A stretch of 64,000 nucleotides of DNA from an uncultured Bacillota bacterium (GCA_949299015.1 CASFYT010000016.1:27066-91065); one strand, 5' to 3'; shown: positions 21,243 through 33,646, counted from the first letter of the stretch. Translations and numbers: made by a program. Notes: generated by a model not told the origin, from the sequence alone.

Positions 21243-23207
21243 CTAGTTCAGCGCACCCGGGCCGTCGTAGGCCTTGTCGTAGATCATGATCAGGAATTCC
21301 GGATGGTCGATGAAGGGGTTGCGGTTGTGCTGGTAGAGCTGGTCGCAGAGGTTGTTGCGATGGACTTCGTAGTCGTCGACCGGATCGATGCCGGAGGTGG
21401 CCCATTCGTAGAGGTCTCCGAAGTTCCCGTGCAGGCCGTCGGCGCCGGAGGTGAAGTCATAGTAGCGGCTGGTGTCGATGTCGCCCGAGACCTCCAGGTC
21501 GACTTCGCCCGATCCGCCGTCGTAGCGCGTCGCCATGTAGAAGATGATGCGGGCCACGTCTCCCTTCCACTCGTCCTGCGGTTCGAAGCCGCCACCGCCG
21601 ACGTAGTTCCCTTCCATGTCGTCCCGCGCCCAGTCATATCCCAGGATGCTCGTCTCGGCCGAGTGGGCGACCGTCTTGAAGTCATGGTTCCCACGCGTCG
21701 AATTCAGATTGTTGAAGCACATGCGGAGGTTGTGCAGGTCGGATCCCATCGGCTTCCGCTCCCCGAAGTCGCCATGGCTCTTGGCCCAGGTGTGCTCCTT
21801 GTTGAAGCTTTCCCGATTGCTCCGAGGCTCACTCTCATAGATGAAGCGGACCTTGCTGGAGTCGAAGGGATCGACGTCGATGACAGGGAGCGAATCATTG
21901 GCCGAATCGTAGCTGAAGGCTTCGTGATCGTCGATGATGTCGTGGAGTCCTTCCTTGAGGGCCAGTCCGGAGAGGCCGCGGATGGGTTCGTAATACTGGT
22001 CGATATCGACAGACTGGTTTCCGCGATCGGGGAAGAAGACCTCGTTGGCGTAGAGATAGGAATAATCGTCCGAAGAGGTCCCGCGCTCCCGGAAGGTGAC
22101 GTTCAGGACATTCGTCTCCTGCTCGATTTCGAAAGAATAAGTCCCGTTGGAGACATAGCTTCCACGGTCGCCGTTGAGGGTCATGTTCGAAAGGTAGTAG
22201 CCTTCCTCCGGAGTGGCGGTCACGACGATTTCGTCACCGACCATCCAATCGGAAGAAGGAGCGATGGACACGTTTCCCGGGCCCTCCTGCTCTACCGAAA
22301 TCGTCGCCGGGACAGGAACGACGGGGACGTCGACGAATTGGATGTCGATGCCGGAGAGGATGATACGCTGCTTCTTCGGGACATCGATCTTCAGCATCTC
22401 CGTCTTCTGTCCGCCAAAGGAGTAGGTCTTGTCGCTCTCTCCTTGGGTCAGGGAGTCTCCATCGATGGAAACCTGGACCGAAGGAGTGTCACTATGATAG
22501 GGCTCGTAGTCCAACGTGACTTCCTGCACCGTCAAGTCGGAGGGGAAACGGAAGGTGACGCTTCCGGCGTTGCTCGACGTTGCCATACGGAAGCAATCCG
22601 TGGGGAGGTCGCCATCACGATAGAGCCCAGTCGAGGACACCGACGAGACGTCGACATTCTCCAAGACCAAATTCGAAAGCGTTAAGTCAAAGGCGTTGTT
22701 TCCAATTCCAGAAAAGTGAATTGATCCGCTTTGCGCTTCTGTGACAATCTGTCTAAATTGAGCTGAGATGGTATATTCAATAGCTTCTTCGACAAGAAAC
22801 GAGTAGCTGTCGAGAATCGTTTCTCCGTTGACGCTCAAATCCTGAATTTCATATCCCGTTTCCGGAGTCGCCTGCACTTCGACGACCGTTCCGATTTCCG
22901 CCTCGTCGCCCGAGACATATTCGATCATCGAAACGCTTCCACCGACGATACCGTCCGCGATGATCAAGGTCGCCTTCTCCGGCTCGGGCGTTGACGAAGA
23001 CGAAGAAGAAGAAGAAGAGGAGGTATCGGAAGAAGAGCTGGAAGAAGAAGAAGAAGAGGAAGAATTCGAGGAGCTCGTCGAATCTCCCGTAGAGGAGAGG
23101 TCGGAAGACGTCGAAGACGAAGAAGTGAGTGAGGACAGCGAGAAAGTCTCGCAGGCCGTCAGGGTGAAGATCAGGACTGGCAGAAGAAGTGTGCTTTTTC
23201 TTTTCAT
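21243..23207 (-). CDS. Surface lipoprotein with a C-terminal endonuclease I domain
   Basis: MKRKSTLLLPVLIFTLTAC lipobox, Ser-rich linker, beta-rich middle. C-terminus carries FNKEHTWAKSHG...GSDLHNLRMCFNNLNSTRGNHDF (endonuclease I family). Confidence 0.8.
   Translation of the reverse strand: MKRKSTLLLPVLIFTLTACETFSLSSLTSSSSTSSDLSSTGDSTSSSNSSSSSSSSSSSSDTSSSSSSSSSSTPEPEKATLIIADGIVGGSVSMIEYVSGDEAEIGTVVEVQATPETGYEIQDLSVNGETILDSYSFLVEEAIEYTISAQFRQIVTEAQSGSIHFSGIGNNAFDLTLSNLVLENVDVSSVSSTGLYRDGDLPTDCFRMATSSNAGSVTFRFPSDLTVQEVTLDYEPYHSDTPSVQVSIDGDSLTQGESDKTYSFGGQKTEMLKIDVPKKQRIILSGIDIQFVDVPVVPVPATISVEQEGPGNVSIAPSSDWMVGDEIVVTATPEEGYYLSNMTLNGDRGSYVSNGTYSFEIEQETNVLNVTFRERGTSSDDYSYLYANEVFFPDRGNQSVDIDQYYEPIRGLSGLALKEGLHDIIDDHEAFSYDSANDSLPVIDVDPFDSSKVRFIYESEPRSNRESFNKEHTWAKSHGDFGERKPMGSDLHNLRMCFNNLNSTRGNHDFKTVAHSAETSILGYDWARDDMEGNYVGGGGFEPQDEWKGDVARIIFYMATRYDGGSGEVDLEVSGDIDTSRYYDFTSGADGLHGNFGDLYEWATSGIDPVDDYEVHRNNLCDQLYQHNRNPFIDHPEFLIMIYDKAYDGPGALN
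22989..23141 (-). repeat. Ser-rich low-complexity linker coding repeat (TCx/AGC runs)
   Basis: Encodes SLSSLTSSSSTSSDLSSTGDSTSSSNSSSSSSSSSSSSDTSSSSSSSSSS. Confidence 0.9.
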
Positions 23208-23297
23208 GGTCTTATCTCGTTTCTCGAAAGCCCAAAAAGGGATTCTCGTCGAGATTATAACCCAGTAAGGCAAAAATGACGATACCGATCGCTCTTT

Positions 23298-24683
23298 TTA
23301 GGCGATTTCCTTCTGATAGGCCCGCTCCGCGCGGAAAAGCTTCGTGCTCAGGCGGTCAATCTTGTCCTTGATTTCCTCGACATAGCGGCGGCTGATGTCG
23401 GCCAAGGCCTCCTCGACCTTCTGTCCCGCGTCGAGGATTGCCTTGTTCTGCTTCCGGATGAGGGCCAGGTCCTTCTCCAGGACCTCCAGAGGCTTGTCGA
23501 GATAGGTCGTCTTCAGCTCCTCGAATTCCTTGTGGAAGGCATCGAACGCCAATTCCTTGGTCGTCTTGTCCTTCTCTCTCAGCGTCAGTTCCGCAAAGCG
23601 GGTGGTCAAGGAGACGATCATGTTGAGGAAGGTCATCAGGAAGGCCGGACGGACGACGTACATGTCCGGATAGTCGGGAACCCGGAAGATGGGGATGTCG
23701 TTGGGCTTGTCCAATTCCAGGTTGGAGACCAGGACCGCGTACTTGCACTTCTTCTTCCTCCGGTTGCTGTCGAGCTGCGGATAGTAGTCGCTGTTGCTCT
23801 TGCGGTTGACCGAATCCGGATTCTCGTCCTTCATGTCCAGGCAGATGCTCGTCAGGAGTTCCTGCTCTTCCTTCTTTTCGGAAGCGTAGATGGAGAAGAG
23901 GAAGTCCGCCTTGCTGCCATGGCTTTCCGTCCCTTCCCTGACGACGGCATTGTCCTTGGTCCAACGGCAGTTCTGGAAGCCGTTCTGCATGTAGGAACGG
24001 ACTTCGCCATCGCACCACTGCTCCAGGTTCTCGCCGATCCTCTTGACATTCAAGGCGGCCTTGGCGTTCTTCAGCTGGGCGTTCTCGTTCTTCAGGCTCT
24101 CCAGCTGGTCGCGGAAATCCTGCGTGAGCTTCTCCTTCTCCTTGGCGAACTCGTTCTCCTTCTCCAGGGAAGTCTTCTCCCGAAGCGCGTCCTTCTCCTG
24201 CTGGAAGCGTTCCTCATCCTGCTTCTGCCGTTCGATCAGCTGCTGAATCCTGCTTTCCTTTTCGTCCAGCTGCTTCTGGTAGCTGATCTGAGCCTGGAGC
24301 CTTTCGTTCTTGAGATTGGCTTCTTGGGCATCTTGGAGGGACTGAAGCTTTGTTCTTGTCTCTTGATAATCTTTTTCTTTCTTCTCAAGTCGATCCGAAA
24401 TCTGCTGGATATCCTGCCGCTTCTTTTCTTCCCATTCTTGCTTCGACTTTTCGAGTCGCTTGAGAATTTCCGCTTCGTTCTTTCCTTGAAGCTCTCGTTC
24501 CTTCTGGGCGACGGCCTCCCGAATCCTCTTCTCCGTCTCCTGGTTCAGGGCCGTCTCCAAAAGATGCTGGATATGGGCAAGATCCACATTGCTGATCTGA
24601 TCGATGCGGATGACGTCGCCCTTCTTGGCGTCCTGCTCGAGCACGAGCGTATTCTTGTCCCGGACGATGACCTTGATTTCCAT
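23298..24683 (-). CDS. Coiled-coil protein, DUF2130-like
   Basis: About 200 aa of heptad-rich K/E/Q sequence, then a C-terminal block GSKADFLFSIY...ICLDMKDE...KKCKYAVLVSNLELD...MYVVRPAFLMTFLN. From memory this matches the DUF2130 family. Confidence 0.5.
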   Translation of the reverse strand: MEIKVIVRDKNTLVLEQDAKKGDVIRIDQISNVDLAHIQHLLETALNQETEKRIREAVAQKERELQGKNEAEILKRLEKSKQEWEEKKRQDIQQISDRLEKKEKDYQETRTKLQSLQDAQEANLKNERLQAQISYQKQLDEKESRIQQLIERQKQDEERFQQEKDALREKTSLEKENEFAKEKEKLTQDFRDQLESLKNENAQLKNAKAALNVKRIGENLEQWCDGEVRSYMQNGFQNCRWTKDNAVVREGTESHGSKADFLFSIYASEKKEEQELLTSICLDMKDENPDSVNRKSNSDYYPQLDSNRRKKKCKYAVLVSNLELDKPNDIPIFRVPDYPDMYVVRPAFLMTFLNMIVSLTTRFAELTLREKDKTTKELAFDAFHKEFEELKTTYLDKPLEVLEKDLALIRKQNKAILDAGQKVEEALADISRRYVEEIKDKIDRLSTKLFRAERAYQKEIA

Positions 24684-24737: not shown

Positions 24738-27329
24738 CTATCTTCCCAAAATCTCCTCGATGCTCTTTCGCAGGTCCTCGCGGTCGACGTCAACGACAAG
24801 GTCGTTGCTTTCAATCGTCCGGACCATCCGCTCGTTCTTCCGCTCCAGGCGCTCTATGATGCGACGATCAATCGAGCCGCCGCGGCTTGCCGCCGATTCC
24901 GTGATCGCGAAGAAGTAGTGGGTCCTCGTTCCTTCGGGGAGACCGACGCGATGGATGCGGTCCTTCGATTGCAGCAGATAGGTCAGGTTGAATCCGTACT
25001 CGAGATAGACGGCCTCGTGACAGGAGCGATGCAGAGAGACAGACTCCGCCAAGGTATTGGGATTGGTGACAAGGACCATGCACTCCCCGTCCCGGAACAG
25101 GCGGATCTTCCGGACTCTGTCCTCTTCGCTGTCGGCTCCCGTGATCGAGAGGGCGGAAATCCCACGCTCTCTCAGAGAGGAGACGACCTTTGCGATGGTA
25201 TCCAGAAATAGGCACCAGAGAAGGACCTTCCGCCCCTTCTTCGCCTCGCCCTCGACGAACTCCAAGGCACGAATCGTCTTGGAGGAAAGCGGGTGCTCCT
25301 TGGCATACCGAAGGCTCTGCGGGGAGAGACGGATATCGTCGACGGGAAAGGGCTGGTCGTCGAAGGCCTCTTTCCAGAGGAAGGGATCGACTCTCTGGGA
25401 CAGGAGGGAAAGGTTGGAGGACGCCTGGATCAGGCGGACGAAGGCCAGAAGCGGGTTCCTTGCCTGCTTCCATATCTCTTCGAAGATCCTCCGCTGCCCT
25501 TCGTCCGGATCGACGGCAAGCGTCGCCAGGTCGTCCTTCTCGGCAGGAGGAATGCCCAACTCCTTCTTGGTGACGCGGACGAAGGTCGGATAGAGGCGCT
25601 CGCGGACCTGACGGGCGAAGAGCTCGTCCGTATCGGCAGAGGAGAGATTTCCCGCCAAGAGCCGGCTGAGCATCTCCGGGTCGTTCGCGTACAGGATTTC
25701 CAGCGTGTTCTTCATGTCCAGGAAGGAATTGGGAAGCGGCGTCCCCGTCAGGGCAAGACGGAACTTGGGACTGGGATATCCCGAGACCAGCTTCTTGATC
25801 CAGGAGGCGCGGACGCCTTCCGTGCCCTTGATGCGATGGATTTCATCGAAGACCAGGAGGGTCTTGTCGGAGAGAAGGCTATGGACCTCCTCTGTCTTCT
25901 CCTCGCTGTTGAAGAACTCATAGTTGAAGAGACAAACGTCGAATCTCTGCCTCTTCAGGACGAGACGGTCCTCGAAAGGGCATTGGGACACGTCGTAGAA
26001 GGAAAGAACCCCCTTCCCAAAGAGCTTCTCTCCTTCTTCCCTCCAGGCCAGGAAGGCGTTGAGCGGAGCAAAGACGAGCAGGGAATCGGCCTGCCCCGTC
26101 GCACGAAGATAGGCGTAGAGGCCGTAGGCGATATAGGTCTTTCCCGATCCCGGGACCGAATAGTCGGCGGAACAAAGAAGGCGGTAGTGAAAATAGGCCG
26201 CCCGCATCTGGAACTCCTTCAACGGAAGAAGAAGGGAACGGGAGACGACTTCCGAGAAGCGGTCGTAGTCCTCCTTCCAGAGATCGATGTCCTCCCACTT
26301 CTTGATCTTAAGCGCCAGCTTCAGGCGTTGCTCCATTAGTTGATCGGTCTCCGCAAGAAGCTTCGCGAGGCGGTCGGAAAGACGAAACGGAACGTTCCAG
26401 CGCTCCAAGGCCTTCTGAACCTGCCGCACCAGCGCCGGGTTGAAATTTGAAAAACGATAGCCCCAATCCCCCTCCCTTTCCCCCTTCCCGTTGGAGAGGA
26501 AACCTGAAAGGGCCCGAACACAGGAGGGATGATGGGCGAAGTCGTCGACAAGAAGCATCCGCTCCCGGACCTCGGCGTCGAGATAGACCACCTGCAGCAG
26601 TTCCTGGGCCCTTCGAAATTCCCGAAAGTCCTGCTTCGAGGAGAAGCTCCTTCCACGATCGAAGGAGCGCAGGACCTGGAAGAGGCGATCCGTCGGTGCG
26701 AAGACGCGGACATAGGGGCTATAGGTTCCGTTCCAGATCTGTTCGAACCGCTGTCGAAGATCTTCCACGCGCAAGGGATCCGTCTTCTCCAGGTAGACGT
26801 CGGTCAGCTCCGAATTGTACCGAGACCCCAACAGCGTCTCGTTGGCCGATCCCTGAAATCCGACAGAGTATCCTTCCTCATCCGTAAAGATCCCGAACTT
26901 CTGATGGAAAAGCGATTCCGCCTTGTCGTTCATCATGAAGGCAATCTTGACTTCTGCAATTCCATGTCGAATCAAATATCCAAGATTGGCAATTTCATAA
27001 TCATTTTTCAATTCATCGAAATGAATTTCAATATCCTTTGCAATCTTTTCTTCTCTATCACGATAGGATTCCAGAATTCCCTCCATCTCTTCCGGCGCGA
27101 TCTTGTTGGAGAAGACGAATCGGATCCGGCCGCCGTTTGCGACGAAGGCGTGGAGTCCTTCGGCGTAGCCGGCCAAGGAAAGAGAGGAGAAATAGGCCGA
27201 CGCCCGGTCGTATCGCTGGGAGAGGGCAAGGCAGGGAAGGAAGAGCTCCTGGTTGATGTCGTGCCCCGGGACCGCAGGATCGTAGGAGATTCGGCAGGTG
27301 AAGGAAGAAAGGCCCTTTCCTTCGCTCAT
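24738..27329 (-). CDS. PLD-family (HKD) nuclease domain fused to an SNF2/SF2 helicase
   Basis: N-terminus FHQKFGIFTDEEGYSVGFQGSANET (HKD motif). Helicase motifs SVPGSGKTYIAYG (Walker A), LLVFDEIHRIKG (DExH) and LTGTPLPNS. C-terminal helicase domain ...LVTNPNTLAESVSLH...LLQSKDRIHRVGL. ATGA overlap with the upstream gene. Confidence 0.85.
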   Translation of the reverse strand: MSEGKGLSSFTCRISYDPAVPGHDINQELFLPCLALSQRYDRASAYFSSLSLAGYAEGLHAFVANGGRIRFVFSNKIAPEEMEGILESYRDREEKIAKDIEIHFDELKNDYEIANLGYLIRHGIAEVKIAFMMNDKAESLFHQKFGIFTDEEGYSVGFQGSANETLLGSRYNSELTDVYLEKTDPLRVEDLRQRFEQIWNGTYSPYVRVFAPTDRLFQVLRSFDRGRSFSSKQDFREFRRAQELLQVVYLDAEVRERMLLVDDFAHHPSCVRALSGFLSNGKGEREGDWGYRFSNFNPALVRQVQKALERWNVPFRLSDRLAKLLAETDQLMEQRLKLALKIKKWEDIDLWKEDYDRFSEVVSRSLLLPLKEFQMRAAYFHYRLLCSADYSVPGSGKTYIAYGLYAYLRATGQADSLLVFAPLNAFLAWREEGEKLFGKGVLSFYDVSQCPFEDRLVLKRQRFDVCLFNYEFFNSEEKTEEVHSLLSDKTLLVFDEIHRIKGTEGVRASWIKKLVSGYPSPKFRLALTGTPLPNSFLDMKNTLEILYANDPEMLSRLLAGNLSSADTDELFARQVRERLYPTFVRVTKKELGIPPAEKDDLATLAVDPDEGQRRIFEEIWKQARNPLLAFVRLIQASSNLSLLSQRVDPFLWKEAFDDQPFPVDDIRLSPQSLRYAKEHPLSSKTIRALEFVEGEAKKGRKVLLWCLFLDTIAKVVSSLRERGISALSITGADSEEDRVRKIRLFRDGECMVLVTNPNTLAESVSLHRSCHEAVYLEYGFNLTYLLQSKDRIHRVGLPEGTRTHYFFAITESAASRGGSIDRRIIERLERKNERMVRTIESNDLVVDVDREDLRKSIEEILGR

Positions 27330-28552
27330 TCCGGCAGGTATCCCTTGATCTTCGCCAACTCCTTCTCGATCTGTCCCAGGAGAATCTTCAGCTCCTTTCG
27401 ATTCTCCGTCGTCGTCTCCCGGATGTCCTGCCACATGATCTTCTGGCAACGTCCGAGGGCCTCCTTCATCAACGCCACCGGCTTGTTCTGGCTCGTCTCC
27501 TTCTTGGACTCGACGATGTTGTCCGAAAGGACTTCCTCGAGCTCGTTCTTCAGCACGTTCCGCTCGGCGCCGTCCTTTCCGTTGAGAAGACCTTCGCTCT
27601 CCTTGGTAAGCAGATTTCCCGTCCTCTGCAGGTAATCCTTCTCCTGAAGCTGCCTTTCCAGGCTTTCGTAGCGGGATGGGTTCTTCGCTGCCATCTCCAA
27701 GACCTCGCGGATCTGTCGGGTCTTGTCCCCCGACAGGTTGCTCAACATCGCAAAGAAATAGTCTCGATGGTTTATCCAGAAGTCATCCGTCATCTTTTTC
27801 TTCCGGTTGGCGATTTCGACGATCGGGCCATGGAGTTCTTCTTCCTTCAGGAGATAGAAGGCCTGCGGAGTCCCGCGCCATTCGAGATATTCCAACATCA
27901 GCTCGACCTGGGACTTCATCTGGGCCATCTCTTTGTCCGTCGCCCCTGAGTAGGTCTGGTACGTCCGCTCGTCGAGCGTCTTCGTCTCCTTGTTGAGGCA
28001 GAGCTTGTAGAAGGAGACGTTCTTGTCGATGGGAGAATAGTCCCTCTTCTCGTCCCTGTTCTCCTGCAGCTCCAGCTCAAGGATTGCGATTGCACGCCAG
28101 GCATCCTTGCCTTCGGGAACGTCCAGGACACAGGCCTCGAAGGTGCTGAACCGCTGTTCTCCTTTCTTCCGATAAAGTTCTCGGAGAACCGTGAAACGAC
28201 GGTTGCCATCGATGATCCTTCCGTCGGCAAGGACGACTCCGGGAACCATCTGTCCCTTCTCTTGGACATCTCGCAGGGTCTTCTCGTAGGAATCCTTCTT
28301 CTCCGCTTCCTTCACAGCCTTTCCGATGAGGTCGTTGTACCGCTCGACATCGTCCTGCTTCAAGGCGAGGATCTCCTGGCGCGAATGTCCTTCGCGAACC
28401 CGTTCCTCGTCGATGAACGTGGCGATGCGGCCGTTCCGGTCGTTGTAGTAGAGTCGATCGAGGGGAATCTCATAGGTCTCCCTGTTCTCGACCTTGTCGT
28501 TGAGACGGAGCCTCATCTCCCCCTTCCTCTTCAGTTCCTTGACGTCGATCAT
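27326..28552 (-). CDS. ParB/sulfiredoxin-fold N-terminal domain protein with a helical C-terminal region
   Basis: YEIPLDRLYYNDRNGRI ... VVLADGRIIDGNRRFTVLREL (ParB-type DGxRR motif). The remainder has no motif I recognise. ATGA overlaps at both ends. Confidence 0.55.
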   Translation of the reverse strand: MIDVKELKRKGEMRLRLNDKVENRETYEIPLDRLYYNDRNGRIATFIDEERVREGHSRQEILALKQDDVERYNDLIGKAVKEAEKKDSYEKTLRDVQEKGQMVPGVVLADGRIIDGNRRFTVLRELYRKKGEQRFSTFEACVLDVPEGKDAWRAIAILELELQENRDEKRDYSPIDKNVSFYKLCLNKETKTLDERTYQTYSGATDKEMAQMKSQVELMLEYLEWRGTPQAFYLLKEEELHGPIVEIANRKKKMTDDFWINHRDYFFAMLSNLSGDKTRQIREVLEMAAKNPSRYESLERQLQEKDYLQRTGNLLTKESEGLLNGKDGAERNVLKNELEEVLSDNIVESKKETSQNKPVALMKEALGRCQKIMWQDIRETTTENRKELKILLGQIEKELAKIKGYLPE

Positions 28553-29250
28553 GACTGAAACACCTCCTTTTCCGTGGGCGATAGGTTTTCCAGAACGATT
28601 CGGGCCAGATACTCTTTGTCCAGCCAGAAGGCCTGCTTCGTCGCCGTCGTCCTTCCTGTCCTCTTGTCGGGAACGGGCAGGCTCAGGACATCGTCCTTGT
28701 TCCGGGCGTGGGGACGGATGTGGGCGACTTGTCTCCCTTCGATGCGGAAGCAGGGGACGAAGCCCTTCTCCGAATAGACGTCTCCCTCCAGGAGCTTCCG
28801 TCGAAAGCCTTCGTAGAGATCCCGTACCGCGAGGAGATCTTCCTTCGGAAGGCGATAGAAGAAATGCGTCAGAATAATCGGCTCCTTGTTCGAAAAGGTC
28901 ACGAAGAACCAGAAATTCTGTGAAAAGTCCTCCCGGATCGGCGAGGAATCCCAGCTCTCCTGAGAGAGACGAAGGAAGTCGAAGGAGGAGAAGGACATGC
29001 TTTCCTTAGGTCTTCCCTCCTTCCCGAGGTGAATGGTCTTCAAGGAAAGGTCGGCATAGCTTTGAAGAAAGGAAAGTCCCTCCATCGGCAGGTTCTGCCG
29101 AAGATAGGTCAGAATCGCAAGATAGCTCTTCGACTTCGAGCTCGAGGGCACGCCCGTCAGCGCCTGGATTTCCCGGATGCTCTTGCCACGGATCTGTTCG
29201 GCCGCCTGAATCAAGGCCGAAAACTGACGAAGAAAGGAAATGTCGATCAT
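28549..29250 (-). CDS. MutH/Sau3AI-family endonuclease-like protein (single domain, 233 aa)
   Basis: By-eye alignment to E. coli MutH: [21 protein letters not shown] ~ [42 protein letters not shown] ~ [33 protein letters not shown] ~ [21 protein letters not shown] ~ RGFYLKKNF. Start is ATG at 29250, overlapping the methyltransferase stop. Confidence 0.55.
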   Translation of the reverse strand: [233 protein letters not shown]

Positions 29251-30127
29251 TCGTCCTCCTCCTTCAGGATTTCGAGAAGCAAGTCTCCCATCCTTTCGAT
29301 GATTCCACAGACCAGGGCATTGCCCATCATGAAGTATCGAGCCGAAGTGGGCATTCCCGTATCCGTCCATCCATCGGGAAAGCCATTCAGCCGCTCGCAT
29401 TCCACCGGCATCAGAAAACGGAGCTTCCCCGTTTCGGGATCGGGAAGGATGTGCGTCGAACGATTGACGGACCCTTCGCTCGTCAACATGGTTCGTCCCG
29501 GAAGATCAAGGGAATCGTAAGGGTTCATTCCGCCCTCGCAGTAGTAATAGGAGAGGCCCGTCGAGGATTGCCTCTCCACCTTCTTCTTCCCTCTCAGATA
29601 GGAGAACTGCTCCTGTTGCTTCGCAGTCAAATAGAAACGTGGATCGTGGCAAGGAAGGACGATACGAGAGAGAGGAGTCGCCTTTTCGGTCAGAGGCGAA
29701 ACCTTGATCGTATAGACTTTCCCATCATGCATCCAGCCCGCATTCTCGAAATGAGCATGAAAACCATCCGAGAAATCGGCAAGATCCAAGAAAGAATCCG
29801 TCAGGGAGATTTCCTGAAGGGGCAAAAGGATGGCCTTGACAGGAAAGGCCTTCGCGAAAATTCCTTCCTTTGTTATAACATCCTCTGGATGATATTTAAG
29901 AATGCTCTTTGCATATTTTGTTTTGTTTCGATAAATGAAAATAAACGTCCTTCTCCTTCTTTGTGCAAATCCATATTCAGCAGCATTCAATACTCTCCAA
30001 AGTGCAGAATACCCCAAATCATGGAGACAGCGAAGGATGATTCCGAAGTCCCTTCCCCGCTGTCCTTTAGGAGAAAGAATCAACCGATTGACGTTTTCCA
30101 GTATTCCGTAAGCAGGATGCTTAAGGA
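29247..30127 (-). CDS. C5-cytosine DNA methyltransferase, 3' portion (motifs VI-X), disconnected from its 5' portion in this orientation
   Basis: From LKHPAYGILENVNRL (ENV), through AEYGFAQRRRRTFIFI (QxRxR), to RYFMMGNALVCGIIERMG (GNxV). The 73 residues upstream in track ORF 29247..30329 are antisense of the inverted segment. Confidence 0.85.
30109..30127. repeat. Left inverted repeat of the invertible segment
   Basis: TAAGCAGGATGCTTAAGGA is the exact reverse complement of 30508..30526. Confidence 0.95.
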
Positions 30128-30140
30128 TTATAATTGAGCC

Positions 30141-30527
30141 ATGAAACCAACAGCTATAGAACTTTTTGCCGGCGTCGGCGGATTCCGTGTTGGACTCAAT
30201 AAAGTGCGTCTTGTCGAGGGACAGACGATAGAAGAAAAACGATTTGAATTTTTGTACGCCAATCAGTGGGAACCCGGGAAAAAACGTCAATATGCTTTTG
30301 AATGTTATAAAAAGCGGTTTGGAAATCAAACCGAAAGATTAGAGAACGTCGATATTTCTCTAGTCGATAAAAAGACGATTCCGGACTTCAACGTCTTGAC
30401 TGCAGGGTTCCCCTGTCAAGACTATTCCGTTGCACGAAAAACGCACTCAAAAACAGGCATAGAAGGCAAAAAAGGCGTCCTCTGGTGGCAACTTAAGGAA
30501 CTTCTATTCCTTAAGCATCCTGCTTAA
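30141..30527 (+). CDS. C5-cytosine DNA methyltransferase, 5' portion (motifs I-V), on the opposite strand from the rest of the gene
   Basis: MKPTAIELFAGVGGFRVGL (FxGxG), LTAGFPCQDYSVARK (PCQ), GKKGVLWWQLKELLFLKHPA, then a TAA created at the repeat junction. TATAAT at 30129..30134 lies 6 nt before the ATG, with no SD. Confidence 0.85.
   Translation: MKPTAIELFAGVGGFRVGLNKVRLVEGQTIEEKRFEFLYANQWEPGKKRQYAFECYKKRFGNQTERLENVDISLVDKKTIPDFNVLTAGFPCQDYSVARKTHSKTGIEGKKGVLWWQLKELLFLKHPA
30508..30526. repeat. Right inverted repeat of the invertible segment
   Basis: TCCTTAAGCATCCTGCTTA is the exact reverse complement of 30109..30127. Confidence 0.95.
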
Positions 30528-30596
30528 TAACTTTTTTCTCTCTCTTCATTCACAGCCCGCAAGCGGGAGGCCAATAGATTGTGAGGGAGGAATATT

Positions 30597-31523
30597 GTGT
30601 CATATCGCTTTATGGACGTTGCATACGCCTGGCTGGAGGAACGAAAGGATTTCGTCAAGCCTTCCACATATGCCCTTTATCGTTGGGATGTCGAAAAGGT
30701 CTTCTCTCATTACTTTCAAACCATCGACGGCTCTTTCGACGATCAGGTCCAGCGCTTCGCCTTATCCCAGTGGAAGCAGGGGCTGAAGCCCAAGACCATC
30801 AAGGATCGAATCTCCCTGATACGGGCGATCTATGAATTCGGCTCGCAAAAGGGATGGTGGCCTTTCCACAGACTCCACGTCCAATATCCGACGTTCGAAG
30901 AAAGGAATACGCTGTCTGTCCTGGAAATCCAAGAGCAGAAAAGTCTTCTTCGCTATCTCGACGAACACCTCAACTTCCACAATCTCGGCCTGATGATCTG
31001 CCTGGAGGAAGGACTCCGGATCGGCGAAATCTGTTCCTTGCGTTTCATGGACATCGATGCCGAAAGGGGCGTCGTCCACGTCCGCCATACCATTCAGCGA
31101 ATCTATTCCTACGAGCGACACCGCTCCGAATTGCATATCGATCGTCCCAAGACCTCGAATTCCGAGAGGGAAATTCCCATGACGAAGTCCCTGCAGAGAA
31201 AGGTCGCCTCCCTTCAGCATCTCTCGAAGCCGGACCATTACGTCCTCACGAATGGTGAAAAGCCCCTCGAGCCTCGTGCCTTTCGCGCTTATTTCTCCCG
31301 CCTCCTCAAACGCCTGCAGCTCTCTCCCATCCGCTTTCACGGCCTCCGGCACAGCTTTGCGACCCGATGCGTCGAGGCGGGATGCGACTACAAGACGCTG
31401 AGCGCAATCCTAGGGCATGCCAACATCGGAACCACGCTCAACCTCTACGTCCATCCCGATCATGAACAGAAGATGAAATGCATCAACCAAATGATGGAAA
31501 GACTGGGCAGGAAGGAATCCTGA
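30597..31523 (+). CDS. Tyrosine site-specific recombinase (integrase/invertase family)
   Basis: GTG start after a GGGAGG RBS. Catalytic signature EEGLRIGEI (R), HGLRHSFATR (HxxR), LGHANIGTT (H) and LNLYVH (Y). Confidence 0.9.
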   Translation: MSYRFMDVAYAWLEERKDFVKPSTYALYRWDVEKVFSHYFQTIDGSFDDQVQRFALSQWKQGLKPKTIKDRISLIRAIYEFGSQKGWWPFHRLHVQYPTFEERNTLSVLEIQEQKSLLRYLDEHLNFHNLGLMICLEEGLRIGEICSLRFMDIDAERGVVHVRHTIQRIYSYERHRSELHIDRPKTSNSEREIPMTKSLQRKVASLQHLSKPDHYVLTNGEKPLEPRAFRAYFSRLLKRLQLSPIRFHGLRHSFATRCVEAGCDYKTLSAILGHANIGTTLNLYVHPDHEQKMKCINQMMERLGRKES

Positions 31524-31702
31524 ACTTTCGAAAACCGAATTTCTCGAGTCCTTTTTCTATTTTCCTTCATGATTCTCCGTTTTCTAGGAAATCTCGAGCC
31601 TGCGAAAAGGAAGAAACAGGTCCCGAAAAGGAAGTCGCCGTGCATCTAGGAAAGACTTCCAAAATCGTGTATAATTGAAAGCGCTTAAAAGGAGAGAAAA
31701 CC

Positions 31703-33646
<1,944 letters not shown>

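Follow-up and report, generated by a model that had tools for sequence, protein, structure and literature searches.

A compact AbiR-like operon whose methylase gene has its 5' end on an invertible segment in an uncultured Bacillota bacterium

The subject of this report is a compact operon of an uncultured Bacillota bacterium, lying in a stretch of 64,000 nt (GCA_949299015.1 CASFYT010000016.1:27066-91065) that is called the window here and whose first letter is the origin of all window coordinates. Between positions 24738 and 30527 are found the genes for a C5-methyltransferase, a small protein resembling the C-terminal domain of the restriction enzyme Sau3AI, a ParB-fold protein and a large protein in which a PLD nuclease is joined to an SNF2-family helicase. 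The minus strand from 24738 to 29250 holds three complete genes, all of which overlap their neighbours. ATGA stop/start overlaps lie at 29247-29250, 28549-28552 and 27326-27329, and the first of these couples the three complete genes to the 3' part of the methyltransferase gene. A first-pass annotation, made from the sequence alone, had described four consecutive minus-strand genes with these same overlaps. The overlaps and the three complete genes are as it stated; the methyltransferase gene, however, is not one intact minus-strand gene, its codons 1 to ~125 being inverted on the plus strand. The 5' end of the methylase gene is carried on an invertible segment beside a tyrosine recombinase gene, and the window holds it in the disrupted orientation.

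The anatomy of this interruption is simple. The N-terminal part of the enzyme, with motifs I to IV, is read in translation from the plus strand at 30141-30527 (motif I as FAGVGG, motif IV as PCQ), and the remainder runs on the minus strand from ~30126 to 29247, in frame with the left repeat, with motifs VI to X and the target-recognition region (ENV, QRRRR and GNA). Repeat search places 25-nt inverted repeats, 92% complementary, at 30109-30133 on the left and 30502-30526 on the right, and their layout defines an invertible segment of 368 bp at 30134-30501, or at 30127-30508 if crossover takes place in the 18-nt perfect core. That core, TAAGCAGGATGCTTAAGG, encodes LKHPA and occurs exactly twice in the 64 kb, against 0.02 occurrences expected. 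Inversion of the segment in silico yields a single open frame for a C5-methyltransferase of 415 residues, which matches PF00145 over residues 5-403 (E=1.2e-53), TIGR00675 with 208 bits (cut-off 101) and the Type II methyltransferase model MTase_II of PADLOC (E=5e-147). Only 70 bp past the right repeat begins the plus-strand gene of a 308-residue tyrosine recombinase (30597-31523; PF00589, E=1.5e-28), the candidate invertase, whose Xer-like NCBIfam matches remain below their cut-offs. The inverted repeats, the restoration of the frame and the adjacent recombinase together therefore identify the window as the disrupted OFF state of an intragenic inverton. The exact product of the 128-residue N-terminal fragment is present in a public protein collection. 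The C part of the methylase is 73% identical to its counterpart in L005 (L-numbers denote the comparison loci, which are genome loci, metagenome contigs and plasmids), and the ratio of nonsynonymous to synonymous substitution rates (dN/dS) between the two is 0.11 in the N half and 0.12 in the C half. The gene is not decaying: between lineages seen only in the split state, strong purifying selection acts on both halves. When the segment is in the OFF orientation, the frame of the C part stays open for 68 more codons, antisense to the N fragment, up to a TTG at 30329 (29247-30329, minus strand), and L005 has a similar extended frame of 352 residues; this extension may be due to chance or may allow translation of the C-terminal fragment.

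At the far end of the operon, the minus-strand gene at 24738-27329 encodes the 863-residue PLD (HKD) nuclease::SNF2-family helicase, an AbiRc-like effector by its Pfam, PADLOC and Protein Data Bank (PDB) sequence matches. Its single HKD signature (HQKFGIFTD...GSAN), Walker A motif (GSGKT) and DEIH motif are all intact. Pfam assigns ResIII (2.4e-11), SNF2-rel_dom, Helicase_C and PLDc_2, with Helicase_C running to ~796 of 863 residues and no further Pfam domain after it, and the PDB sequence matches are to Snf2, ISWI and SsoRad54. A profile of the PLD domains of 27 relatives matches the PLD-family nucleases MitoPLD/Zucchini and NucT, and H142, K144, G160, S161 and N163 are invariant across all 27 domains. 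The PbeA model of PADLOC also matches the protein, mainly in the PLD domain (E=3.6e-58). The preceding gene, at 27326-28552 on the minus strand, encodes a 408-residue ParB/Srx-fold protein, AbiRb-like, recognised by its invariant motifs and by the fold of its AlphaFold2 model. This protein has no match in Pfam or PADLOC; it carries the invariant motif G..DGNRRF and has 718 homologues in search, and in an alignment of 18 sequences N40-G41-R42-I43-A44-T45 and G116-N117-R118-R119 are invariant. The only meaningful solved-structure match of the model, which has a predicted local distance difference test score (pLDDT) of 89.5, is the N-domain of pNOB8-like ParB (5K5D and 5K5A, probability 1.0). Both the ParB DGxRR domain and the fusion of an HKD nuclease to a Walker A/DExH/helicase-C SNF2-like motor, as proposed in the first-pass annotation, are thus confirmed.

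The same annotation had taken the product of the second gene (28549-29250, minus strand) for a MutH/Sau3AI-like nuclease, of which the likeness survives and the nuclease does not. In alignment with E. coli MutH, Asp70 and Glu77 are both replaced by Ser in this 233-residue protein, and Lys79 is kept. NCBIfam restrict_Sau3AI (NF040973) is matched only at profile positions 246-474 of 475 (E=9e-26), and the Sau3AI C-terminal fragment (7XM0, 2REU) is a better PDB sequence match than MutH. The fold agrees: the AlphaFold2 model (pLDDT 94.5) has as its top match 7XM0, the C-terminal domain of Sau3AI with DNA (E=1.5e-14, template-modelling score 0.72), with MutH behind at E~1e-9. In Sau3AI this C-terminal domain binds a second copy of GATC as an allosteric effector. 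The loss of the active site extends through the family, as seen in an alignment of proteins from related loci: nine that stand alone, twelve longer ones of Bacillaceae type, and thirteen full-length Sau3AI-like enzymes, of which both domains were included. The catalytic D and E are missing in all nine stand-alone members; in these the Glu position is occupied by S, N, V, Q, T or F, and all have the C-domain motif GxPKESMSF in common. D..ELK is retained in the N-domains of the full-length enzymes of neighbouring loci. Among the twelve longer proteins, eleven are of the inactive type, and the other, L030_496, has retained ELK and falls with the active N-domains. A word-indexed search with the 233-residue protein returned only the protein itself, and HMMER was used instead, whose exhaustive search found 697 representative relatives. 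Among the best 150 of these 697, ~45 are stand-alone proteins of 210-265 residues and the others are enzymes of ~440-490 residues aligned through their C-terminal domain; K39, H177, R179 and H181 are invariant in the short family. Because D...ExK is absent from the nine stand-alone members and the protein is of the Sau3AI C-terminal effector-domain type, it is not expected to be a nicking enzyme. Its sequence and model indicate a stand-alone, nuclease-dead DNA-binding domain, and we predict that it serves as a reader of GATC and its methylation state.

How widely these genes travel together was surveyed with a narrow pattern search, one genome per species, which found 219 loci with a ParB-like relative in ~185,000 representative genomes, and 80 of the 219 were analysed with 10-kb flanks. 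An SNF2 helicase gene follows the ParB gene directly and on the same strand in 64 of the 69 loci with enough downstream sequence; 44 of these helicases have a PLD domain and 20, of ~620-640 residues, do not. Exceptions include a Spiroplasma locus fragmented by table-11 translation and a contig of Staphylococcus pasteuri DSM 10656 (L037), in which the ParB-like and helicase parts form a single open frame of 1024 residues. This candidate natural fusion, if genuine, would support a physical interaction of the two proteins. The pair of ParB and helicase genes is conserved as a module across Bacillota and is also found in some archaea, Spirochaetes, Fusobacteria and others. Directly upstream of the ParB gene stands a gene for a sigma70/alpha-CTD-like protein of ~800-980 residues in 54 of 66 loci, and a MutH-like gene lies upstream in 12 of the 66. 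The sigma-like proteins tested as examples have two RNA-polymerase alpha-CTD domains (RNA_pol_A_CTD) and a sigma-70 region 4 helix-turn-helix (HTH; Sigma70_r4), and the NCBI annotation of the Enterococcus faecalis version is sigma factor-like HTH protein. A MutH-like protein and a methylase with 40-57% identity to that of the window are both encoded within 10 kb in 31 of 74 loci. PADLOC v2 has no model for the ParB-like or the sigma-like subunits.

The association of the module with Sau3AI-type proteins takes several forms. In one, a full Sau3AI-family enzyme and a methylase stand beside the three-gene module (L011, L015, L029, L052 and L088; 422-575 bits against the NCBIfam equivalog cut-off of 300). 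In another, found in Bacillaceae (L013, L017 and others), the inactive domain is fused to a C-terminal region that is shared with the sigma-like subunit (E=1e-32). The form of the window, with methylase, short reader, ParB and PLD::SNF2 and no sigma-like gene, recurs in L005-L010, L016, L048 and L061 and in the metagenome contigs L096 and L097-99, and L093 has the same order from the reader onward on a contig that ends before any methylase gene. In all, the four-gene order is found in at least 11 further lineages. Mixed arrangements occur as well: L100 has a methylase, a full Sau3AI-like enzyme, the short reader, ParB and PLD::SNF2; L094 has a methylase on the opposite strand, then the short reader, a 619-residue protein resembling the sigma-like family at its C-terminus, ParB and PLD::SNF2; and on a Lactiplantibacillus plasmid the reader comes after the helicase, beside a Vsr gene. 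Immediately upstream of the L100 array (L100:1-3305) are genes for a 1511-residue DEAD/MZB helicase (DUF1998-type, DrmA/YprA-like) and an 824-residue protein, a setting that looks like a defence island. On the Lactococcus lactis plasmid pIBB109_AgSa_3 (L085:4005-12019), genes for a ParB-like protein and a 620-residue PLD-less SNF2 helicase come straight after a Type III mod-res pair, the ends of the genes overlapping, and the ParB-helicase pair can therefore be appended to other types of restriction-modification system. The sigma-like, ParB-like and PLD-less helicase genes form a module on 52 Enterococcus plasmid records, mostly of E. faecalis; the only one of these loci examined (L087:6345-12020) has no methylase annotated nearby and no homologue of the window methylase. 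The gene arrangement of the window is far beyond chance: the order of the four genes is seen again in 9 other genomes at species level, as well as on additional metagenome contigs. The four genes as one conserved functional unit of restriction or defence type are supported accordingly, as the first-pass annotation had envisaged when it spoke of a multi-component unit and proposed a survey of co-occurrence: the set is conserved across many taxa and its members are not neighbours in this genome alone.

The switch is shared by part of this family. L005, from a different species whose ParB-like protein is 53% identical, shares with the window the 18-nt core, the spacing of 368 nt and the split orientation, and its adjacent recombinase is 65% identical. 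The methylase is also split in L001 and L002, whose proteins are identical to those of the window, and in L089, a relative from another sample with a ParB-like protein 90% identical. In a sister clade, L008 and L010, a homologous recombinase (41% and 39% identical, respectively) is located after the helicase gene, and perfect repeats of 25 nt (L008) and 39 nt (L010) bound a segment of ~880 bp. These are two different species, with the methylase intact in L010 and inverted in L008. The L010 segment consists of ~250 bp of upstream DNA and the first ~209 codons, and because it holds ~250 bp upstream of the ATG the promoter of the sister clade very probably lies inside the flipping segment; a sigma-70 scan of it gave two sites, which is at chance level. 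A further variant is found in two samples (L091:3617-8462, and L092 at the same coordinates), with a recombinase 50% identical, a split methylase in the OFF orientation and a 241-residue reader. Its repeat is AAGCAGGATGCTTTGTGAT, with 380 nt between the arms, and the core AAGCAGGATGCTT is shared between the window and L091. Here the cassette is followed by a GmrSD-type DUF262+DUF1524 protein and not by ParB and PLD::SNF2. DUF262 is a ParB/Srx-fold NTPase domain; the cassette of recombinase, methylase and reader is therefore modular, and a ParB-fold element is found in both partners. Recombinase homologues accompany a split or invertible methylase in L005, L008, L010 and L091, and in all four, as in the window, inverted repeats enclose a segment near a site-specific recombinase gene. 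At least 10 relatives have an ordinary single-piece methylase gene. In metagenome contigs of the Joint Genome Institute (JGI) neither the ON junction nor the orientation-neutral junction was matched, and from the lack of the latter the organism is taken to be absent from that collection.

Short inverted repeats and an adjacent tyrosine recombinase that flip the 5' end of a methylase operon recall the known phase-variable restriction-modification genes with their invertible promoters, hsdS shufflons and intragenic invertons. The window differs from these in that a Type II-like C5 methylase has its first ~125 codons on the segment, with one repeat inside the coding sequence (LKHPA), and in that only one orientation has been seen so far for its repeat type.

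The architecture of the operon leads to AbiR, known since 1989-2006 as a lactococcal phage-resistance system. AbiR adjoins the genes of LlaKR2I, a Sau3AI isoschizomer with a C5 methylase. Of its three subunits, AbiRa is sigma70-like, AbiRb is ParB-like with 5K5D as its best structure (reported for AbiRii), and AbiRc combines, at its N-terminus, a domain that resembles the PLD restriction enzyme SauUSI (7CLG) with a helicase of Snf2 type at its C-terminus (PMC13064643). In the work of Twomey 2000 and Yang 2006, as far as it is summarised in PMC13064643, AbiR adjoins the LlaKR2I restriction-modification genes, needs M.LlaKR2I, in whose absence it is toxic, and hinders the replication of phage DNA. 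DefenseFinder includes AbiR, with AbiRc as its helicase (PMC12278908), and the 2026 review still calls its mechanism unclear (PMC13064643). The window operon has the ParB-fold middle subunit, with the same nearest solved structure (5K5D), followed by a third subunit with an N-terminal PLD and a C-terminal Snf2-type helicase. As in AbiR, there is a genetic link with a C5 methylase from a GATC (Sau3AI-isoschizomer) system: the methylase of the window lies in the operon, and homologues of it (40-57% identity) adjoin proteins that pass the equivalog cut-off of NF040973. The GATC specificity of the window methylase is predicted from these neighbours. A sigma70-like first gene, as in AbiR, occurs in the wider family (54 of the 66 loci above). 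In contrast, the window operon has no AbiRa-like open reading frame and no active Sau3AI-type enzyme; a stand-alone inactive Sau3AI C-domain protein stands in the place of AbiRa, and the operon itself opens with the methylase gene, which the inverton interrupts. With an AbiRa-type gene absent, the operon is not canonical AbiR and is rather an AbiR-like variant. We regard it as a compact and switchable relative of AbiR, not as a wholly new system, and the earlier view that it belonged to no named system is not upheld: its architecture is that of lactococcal AbiR (PMC13064643), which DefenseFinder covers (PMC12278908), the resemblance being one of architecture, context and fold. What is new is the replacement of AbiRa by a dead Sau3AI domain, the intragenic inverton controlling the methylase and the alternative GmrSD partner of the cassette.

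Other known systems share parts of this design. With the Type II systems Sau3AI and LlaKR2I the operon has in common the methylase family and the GATC-binding C-terminal effector domain, to which the 233-residue protein corresponds in NF040973 positions 246-474 and in the fold of 7XM0. The window differs from them in having no catalytic N-terminal MutH-like domain (D...ExK), and with this domain missing, any cleavage must be done by another protein, through the PLD domain. In CglI, NgoAVII and SauUSI the nuclease needs a superfamily 2 (SF2) translocase, and recognition, motor and nuclease are separable; CglI and NgoAVII have a C5 methylase. PMC5861437 describes this class as having an ATP-dependent nuclease of the PLD family. 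The reliance of a PLD nuclease on an SF2 translocase and ATP is a point of likeness, whereas in the window the nuclease is fused to the motor, recognition lies on a separate protein and a ParB-fold subunit is added. Pfam finds no recognition domain of the CglI/SauUSI type (B3-like, DUF3427) in the window proteins, and a SauUSI-like Type IV enzyme was rejected for want of a C-terminal modified-base recognition domain after the helicase. PbeABCD, as defined in PMC10853773, consists of PbeA, a CxC ABC ATPase (PbeC), a DndE-like protein (PbeD) and a small protein, and it stops viral replication, reportedly without detectable degradation of viral DNA. Both systems have a protein with an HKD nuclease and an SF2 helicase, with strongly similar PLD domains, and each is linked to a DNA modification that marks self; cytosine methylases adjoin some PbeAC loci. 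The window, however, has ParB-fold and MutH-fold proteins in place of the CxC ABC ATPase, the DndE-like and the small protein, and for PbeC and PbeD there is no PADLOC or Pfam match and no candidate open reading frame in its operon. DISARM, Dnd and Dpd were rejected because their core genes are missing, in agreement with the first-pass annotation, and BREX-related systems were rejected on the same ground: the operon has no open reading frame for drmA or drmB (DUF1998) and no Dnd or Dpd modification genes, and the weak matches to DrmD/DrmA models (E 4e-9 to 8e-3) are generic ones to the helicase core.

Taken together, it seems that the operon encodes a phase-variable, methylation-keyed, ATP-dependent restriction system of AbiR type. 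We put the probability of this at roughly 0.6, a figure for the class as a whole, with each individual step less certain. This reading starts from the domain identities, the intact catalytic motifs, the inactive reader, the conservation of the module and the inverton anatomy. In such a system the methylase would mark GATC sites of the host with 5-methylcytosine, and the Sau3AI-C-like protein would read unmethylated GATC on incoming DNA. The reader would then recruit or license the ParB-fold protein, probably a nucleotide-dependent switch or clamp or else an adaptor, which in turn would engage the PLD::SNF2 enzyme. The latter may translocate on ATP and cut DNA as a dimer of single-HKD domains. 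Recombinase-driven inversion would turn the system on and off, the promoter being most likely carried by the segment, so that the OFF state would silence the whole operon. The specificity for GATC and 5-methylcytosine, the order of events, the cleavage and the silencing are predictions of this model. It parallels the genetics of AbiR, because AbiR is toxic without M.LlaKR2I and blocks phage DNA replication.

Several observations weigh against this reading. Cleavage by the PLD::SNF2 protein is not guaranteed, because PbeABCD, with a homologous PLD-helicase, reportedly spares viral DNA. The operon is likened to AbiRa/b/c of pKR223 by architecture, context and fold rather than by sequence, and its membership of AbiR at the sequence level is very likely rather than certain. 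The GATC specificity and 5-methylcytosine sensitivity of the predicted reader are suggested by its family membership, and this reader has no C-terminal adaptor region of the kind that links readers to the module in other loci. The inverton at the LKHPA site is split in all seven assemblies (window, L001, L002, L089, L005, L091 and L092), and the reconstructed full-length ON protein was not found in a collection of 15 billion proteins. A sigma-70 scan of 29000-31000 found no consensus promoter. The reading also demands that the nuclease genes be silenced in the OFF state. The MutH-like and ParB genes carry their own GGAGG (Shine-Dalgarno) sites, however, and the window holds 437 GATC sites against 527 expected (ratio 0.83). 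From the ribosome-binding sites of the nuclease genes and these 437 sites it follows that OFF must silence transcription, or that a second methylase exists, or that the halves work as a split enzyme.

Some possible routes to silencing and some footprints were considered and set aside. Silencing through translational coupling was rejected on account of the GGAGG sites, and a hairpin at 30333-30315 (minus strand) as a terminator of the OFF state was rejected since 3 such hits are found where 2.4 are expected and the stem is not conserved in L005. Avoidance of GATC as a footprint of the system was rejected as a weak effect; CTAG, for its part, is strongly under-represented across the window (20 observed against 104 expected, ratio 0.19). 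As for the promoter, only 7 nt within the window segment precede the methyltransferase ATG. The hexamer TATAAT, a speculative -10 box read from the sequence at 30129-30134 on the plus strand, lies 6 nt 5' of this ATG and is also present in L005; it was not called by the consensus scan, having no -35 match. It falls within the 7 imperfect inner bases of the repeat and flips only if crossover occurs in the 18-nt core. If it were the -10 box of a leaderless transcript and crossover did occur there, it would move with the segment and, in OFF, would read through the N fragment into the recombinase gene, leaving the nuclease genes unpromoted; this is speculation.

Other explanations have to be weighed against the restriction reading. 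The ParB and PLD::SNF2 proteins could form a latent toxin acting on host DNA or replication forks, with the methylase as its antidote, such that infection, for instance through unmethylated replicating DNA or loss of methylase activity, arrests the cell and phage DNA is not cut directly. AbiR is indeed classed as abortive infection, impedes phage DNA replication and is toxic without its methylase (PMC13064643), and the homologous PLD-helicase of PbeABCD stops viral replication without detectable DNA degradation. The HKD signature is nevertheless strictly kept in homologues that bear the PLD domain, the operon includes a sequence reader of the kind found in restriction enzymes, and toxicity without the methylase is equally shown by classical restriction enzymes, which leaves this explanation unlikely. 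It is less likely still that the genes are unrelated neighbours, a decayed Sau3AI-type restriction-modification system (methylase and truncated enzyme remnant) beside an independent ParB/helicase system. The short protein is no remnant; it belongs to a conserved family of 210-265 residues with invariant K39, H177, R179 and H181, and in Bacillaceae its domain is joined to the region shared with the sigma-like subunit. ATGA overlaps at all three junctions and the recurrence of the methylase-short reader-ParB-helicase order in the further lineages also speak against independence, even if the ParB/helicase module occurs without a methylase in about half of the loci, for instance on Enterococcus faecalis plasmids, as well as beside complete Sau3AI-type systems and beside a Type III system.

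The split state might itself be functional, the methylase halves being made separately and assembling into an active two-piece enzyme, with the repeats a relic or serving another role. Two-piece C5 methylases are known from M.AquI and from fragment-complementation studies; the finding of the split in seven of seven assemblies of this repeat type and the purifying selection on both halves (dN/dS ~0.1) would fit. Yet the C-terminal half has no ATG, and its sole upstream open frame consists of the 68 antisense-derived codons from TTG. The repeats, moreover, sit exactly where inversion restores a continuous full-length frame, an adjacent recombinase is present in every case, both orientations occur in the sister clade (L008 and L010) and the relatives with a single-piece gene number at least 10; a two-piece enzyme is therefore distinctly improbable. 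Most improbable is the nick-and-shred scheme of the first-pass annotation, in which the MutH-like enzyme would nick unmethylated sites and the ParB protein and helicase-nuclease would load and degrade the DNA, as in mismatch-repair excision. The 233-residue protein does have the MutH fold, but both of the MutH acidic residues are Ser in it and these positions vary (S/N/V/Q/T/F) in the stand-alone family, whereas true Sau3AI N-domains in neighbouring loci keep D..ELK. Sequence and model fit the non-catalytic C-domain of Sau3AI, the effector-domain type, better than they fit MutH, and the scheme is abandoned here with the D...ExK residues missing in all nine stand-alone members aligned.

The surroundings of the operon are partly conserved. 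G+C falls to 0.48-0.50 at 29000-32000, a span that includes the methylase 5' end, the inverton and the recombinase, against ~0.58 elsewhere in the window, which is consistent with horizontal acquisition of the cassette. Directly after the recombinase gene, at 31703-33646 on the plus strand, is a gene for a secreted-looking protein of 647 residues with long collagen-like G-x-x repeats, kept in L001, L002 and L089. Downstream of the operon lie minus-strand genes for a coiled-coil DUF2130 protein (23298-24683) and a Ser-rich secreted protein with an Endonuclease_1 domain (21243-23273), both syntenic in the closest relatives only (L001, L005, L089 and L090). The DUF2130 gene was rejected as a member of the system, its synteny being limited to closest relatives (L005, L089 and L090). 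A homologue search from the ParB protein of the Lactiplantibacillus plasmid gave no protein named AbiR among the matches listed, and PLSDB holds no pKR223-like Lactococcus plasmid, the sole lactococcal match being the Type III-linked variant.

If the phase-variable restriction system is the right reading, the consequences reach beyond one organism. An intact PLD nuclease on an SNF2 motor, with a dedicated nuclease-dead GATC-binding domain, would make the system a restriction enzyme in separate parts that depends on ATP and is keyed to 5-methylcytosine within GATC. Tentatively, and against the balance of our own expectation, the methylase and the dead Sau3AI domain may be seen as a portable self-mark/reader cassette with its own switch, licensing interchangeable effectors based on the ParB fold: ParB-like plus PLD::SNF2 here, and a GmrSD-type nuclease of DUF262 (ParB-fold) and DUF1524 in L091/L092. 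If so, AbiR-type systems would be true ATP-dependent restriction enzymes with swappable sensors, be it a sigma70/alpha-CTD-like protein, a dead Sau3AI domain or an adjacent Type III system, and the 20-year-old dependence of AbiR on M.LlaKR2I would be explained as a reading of GATC methylation. The locus and its relatives thereby offer a concrete and testable answer to the question of how AbiR works, and they do so for a broad family that extends over representative genomes, 52 Enterococcus plasmids and archaea. The intragenic inverton, finally, is a clear example of how flipping the first ~125 codons of its gene can switch a methylase of Type II-like kind and probably, with it, an entire restriction operon.

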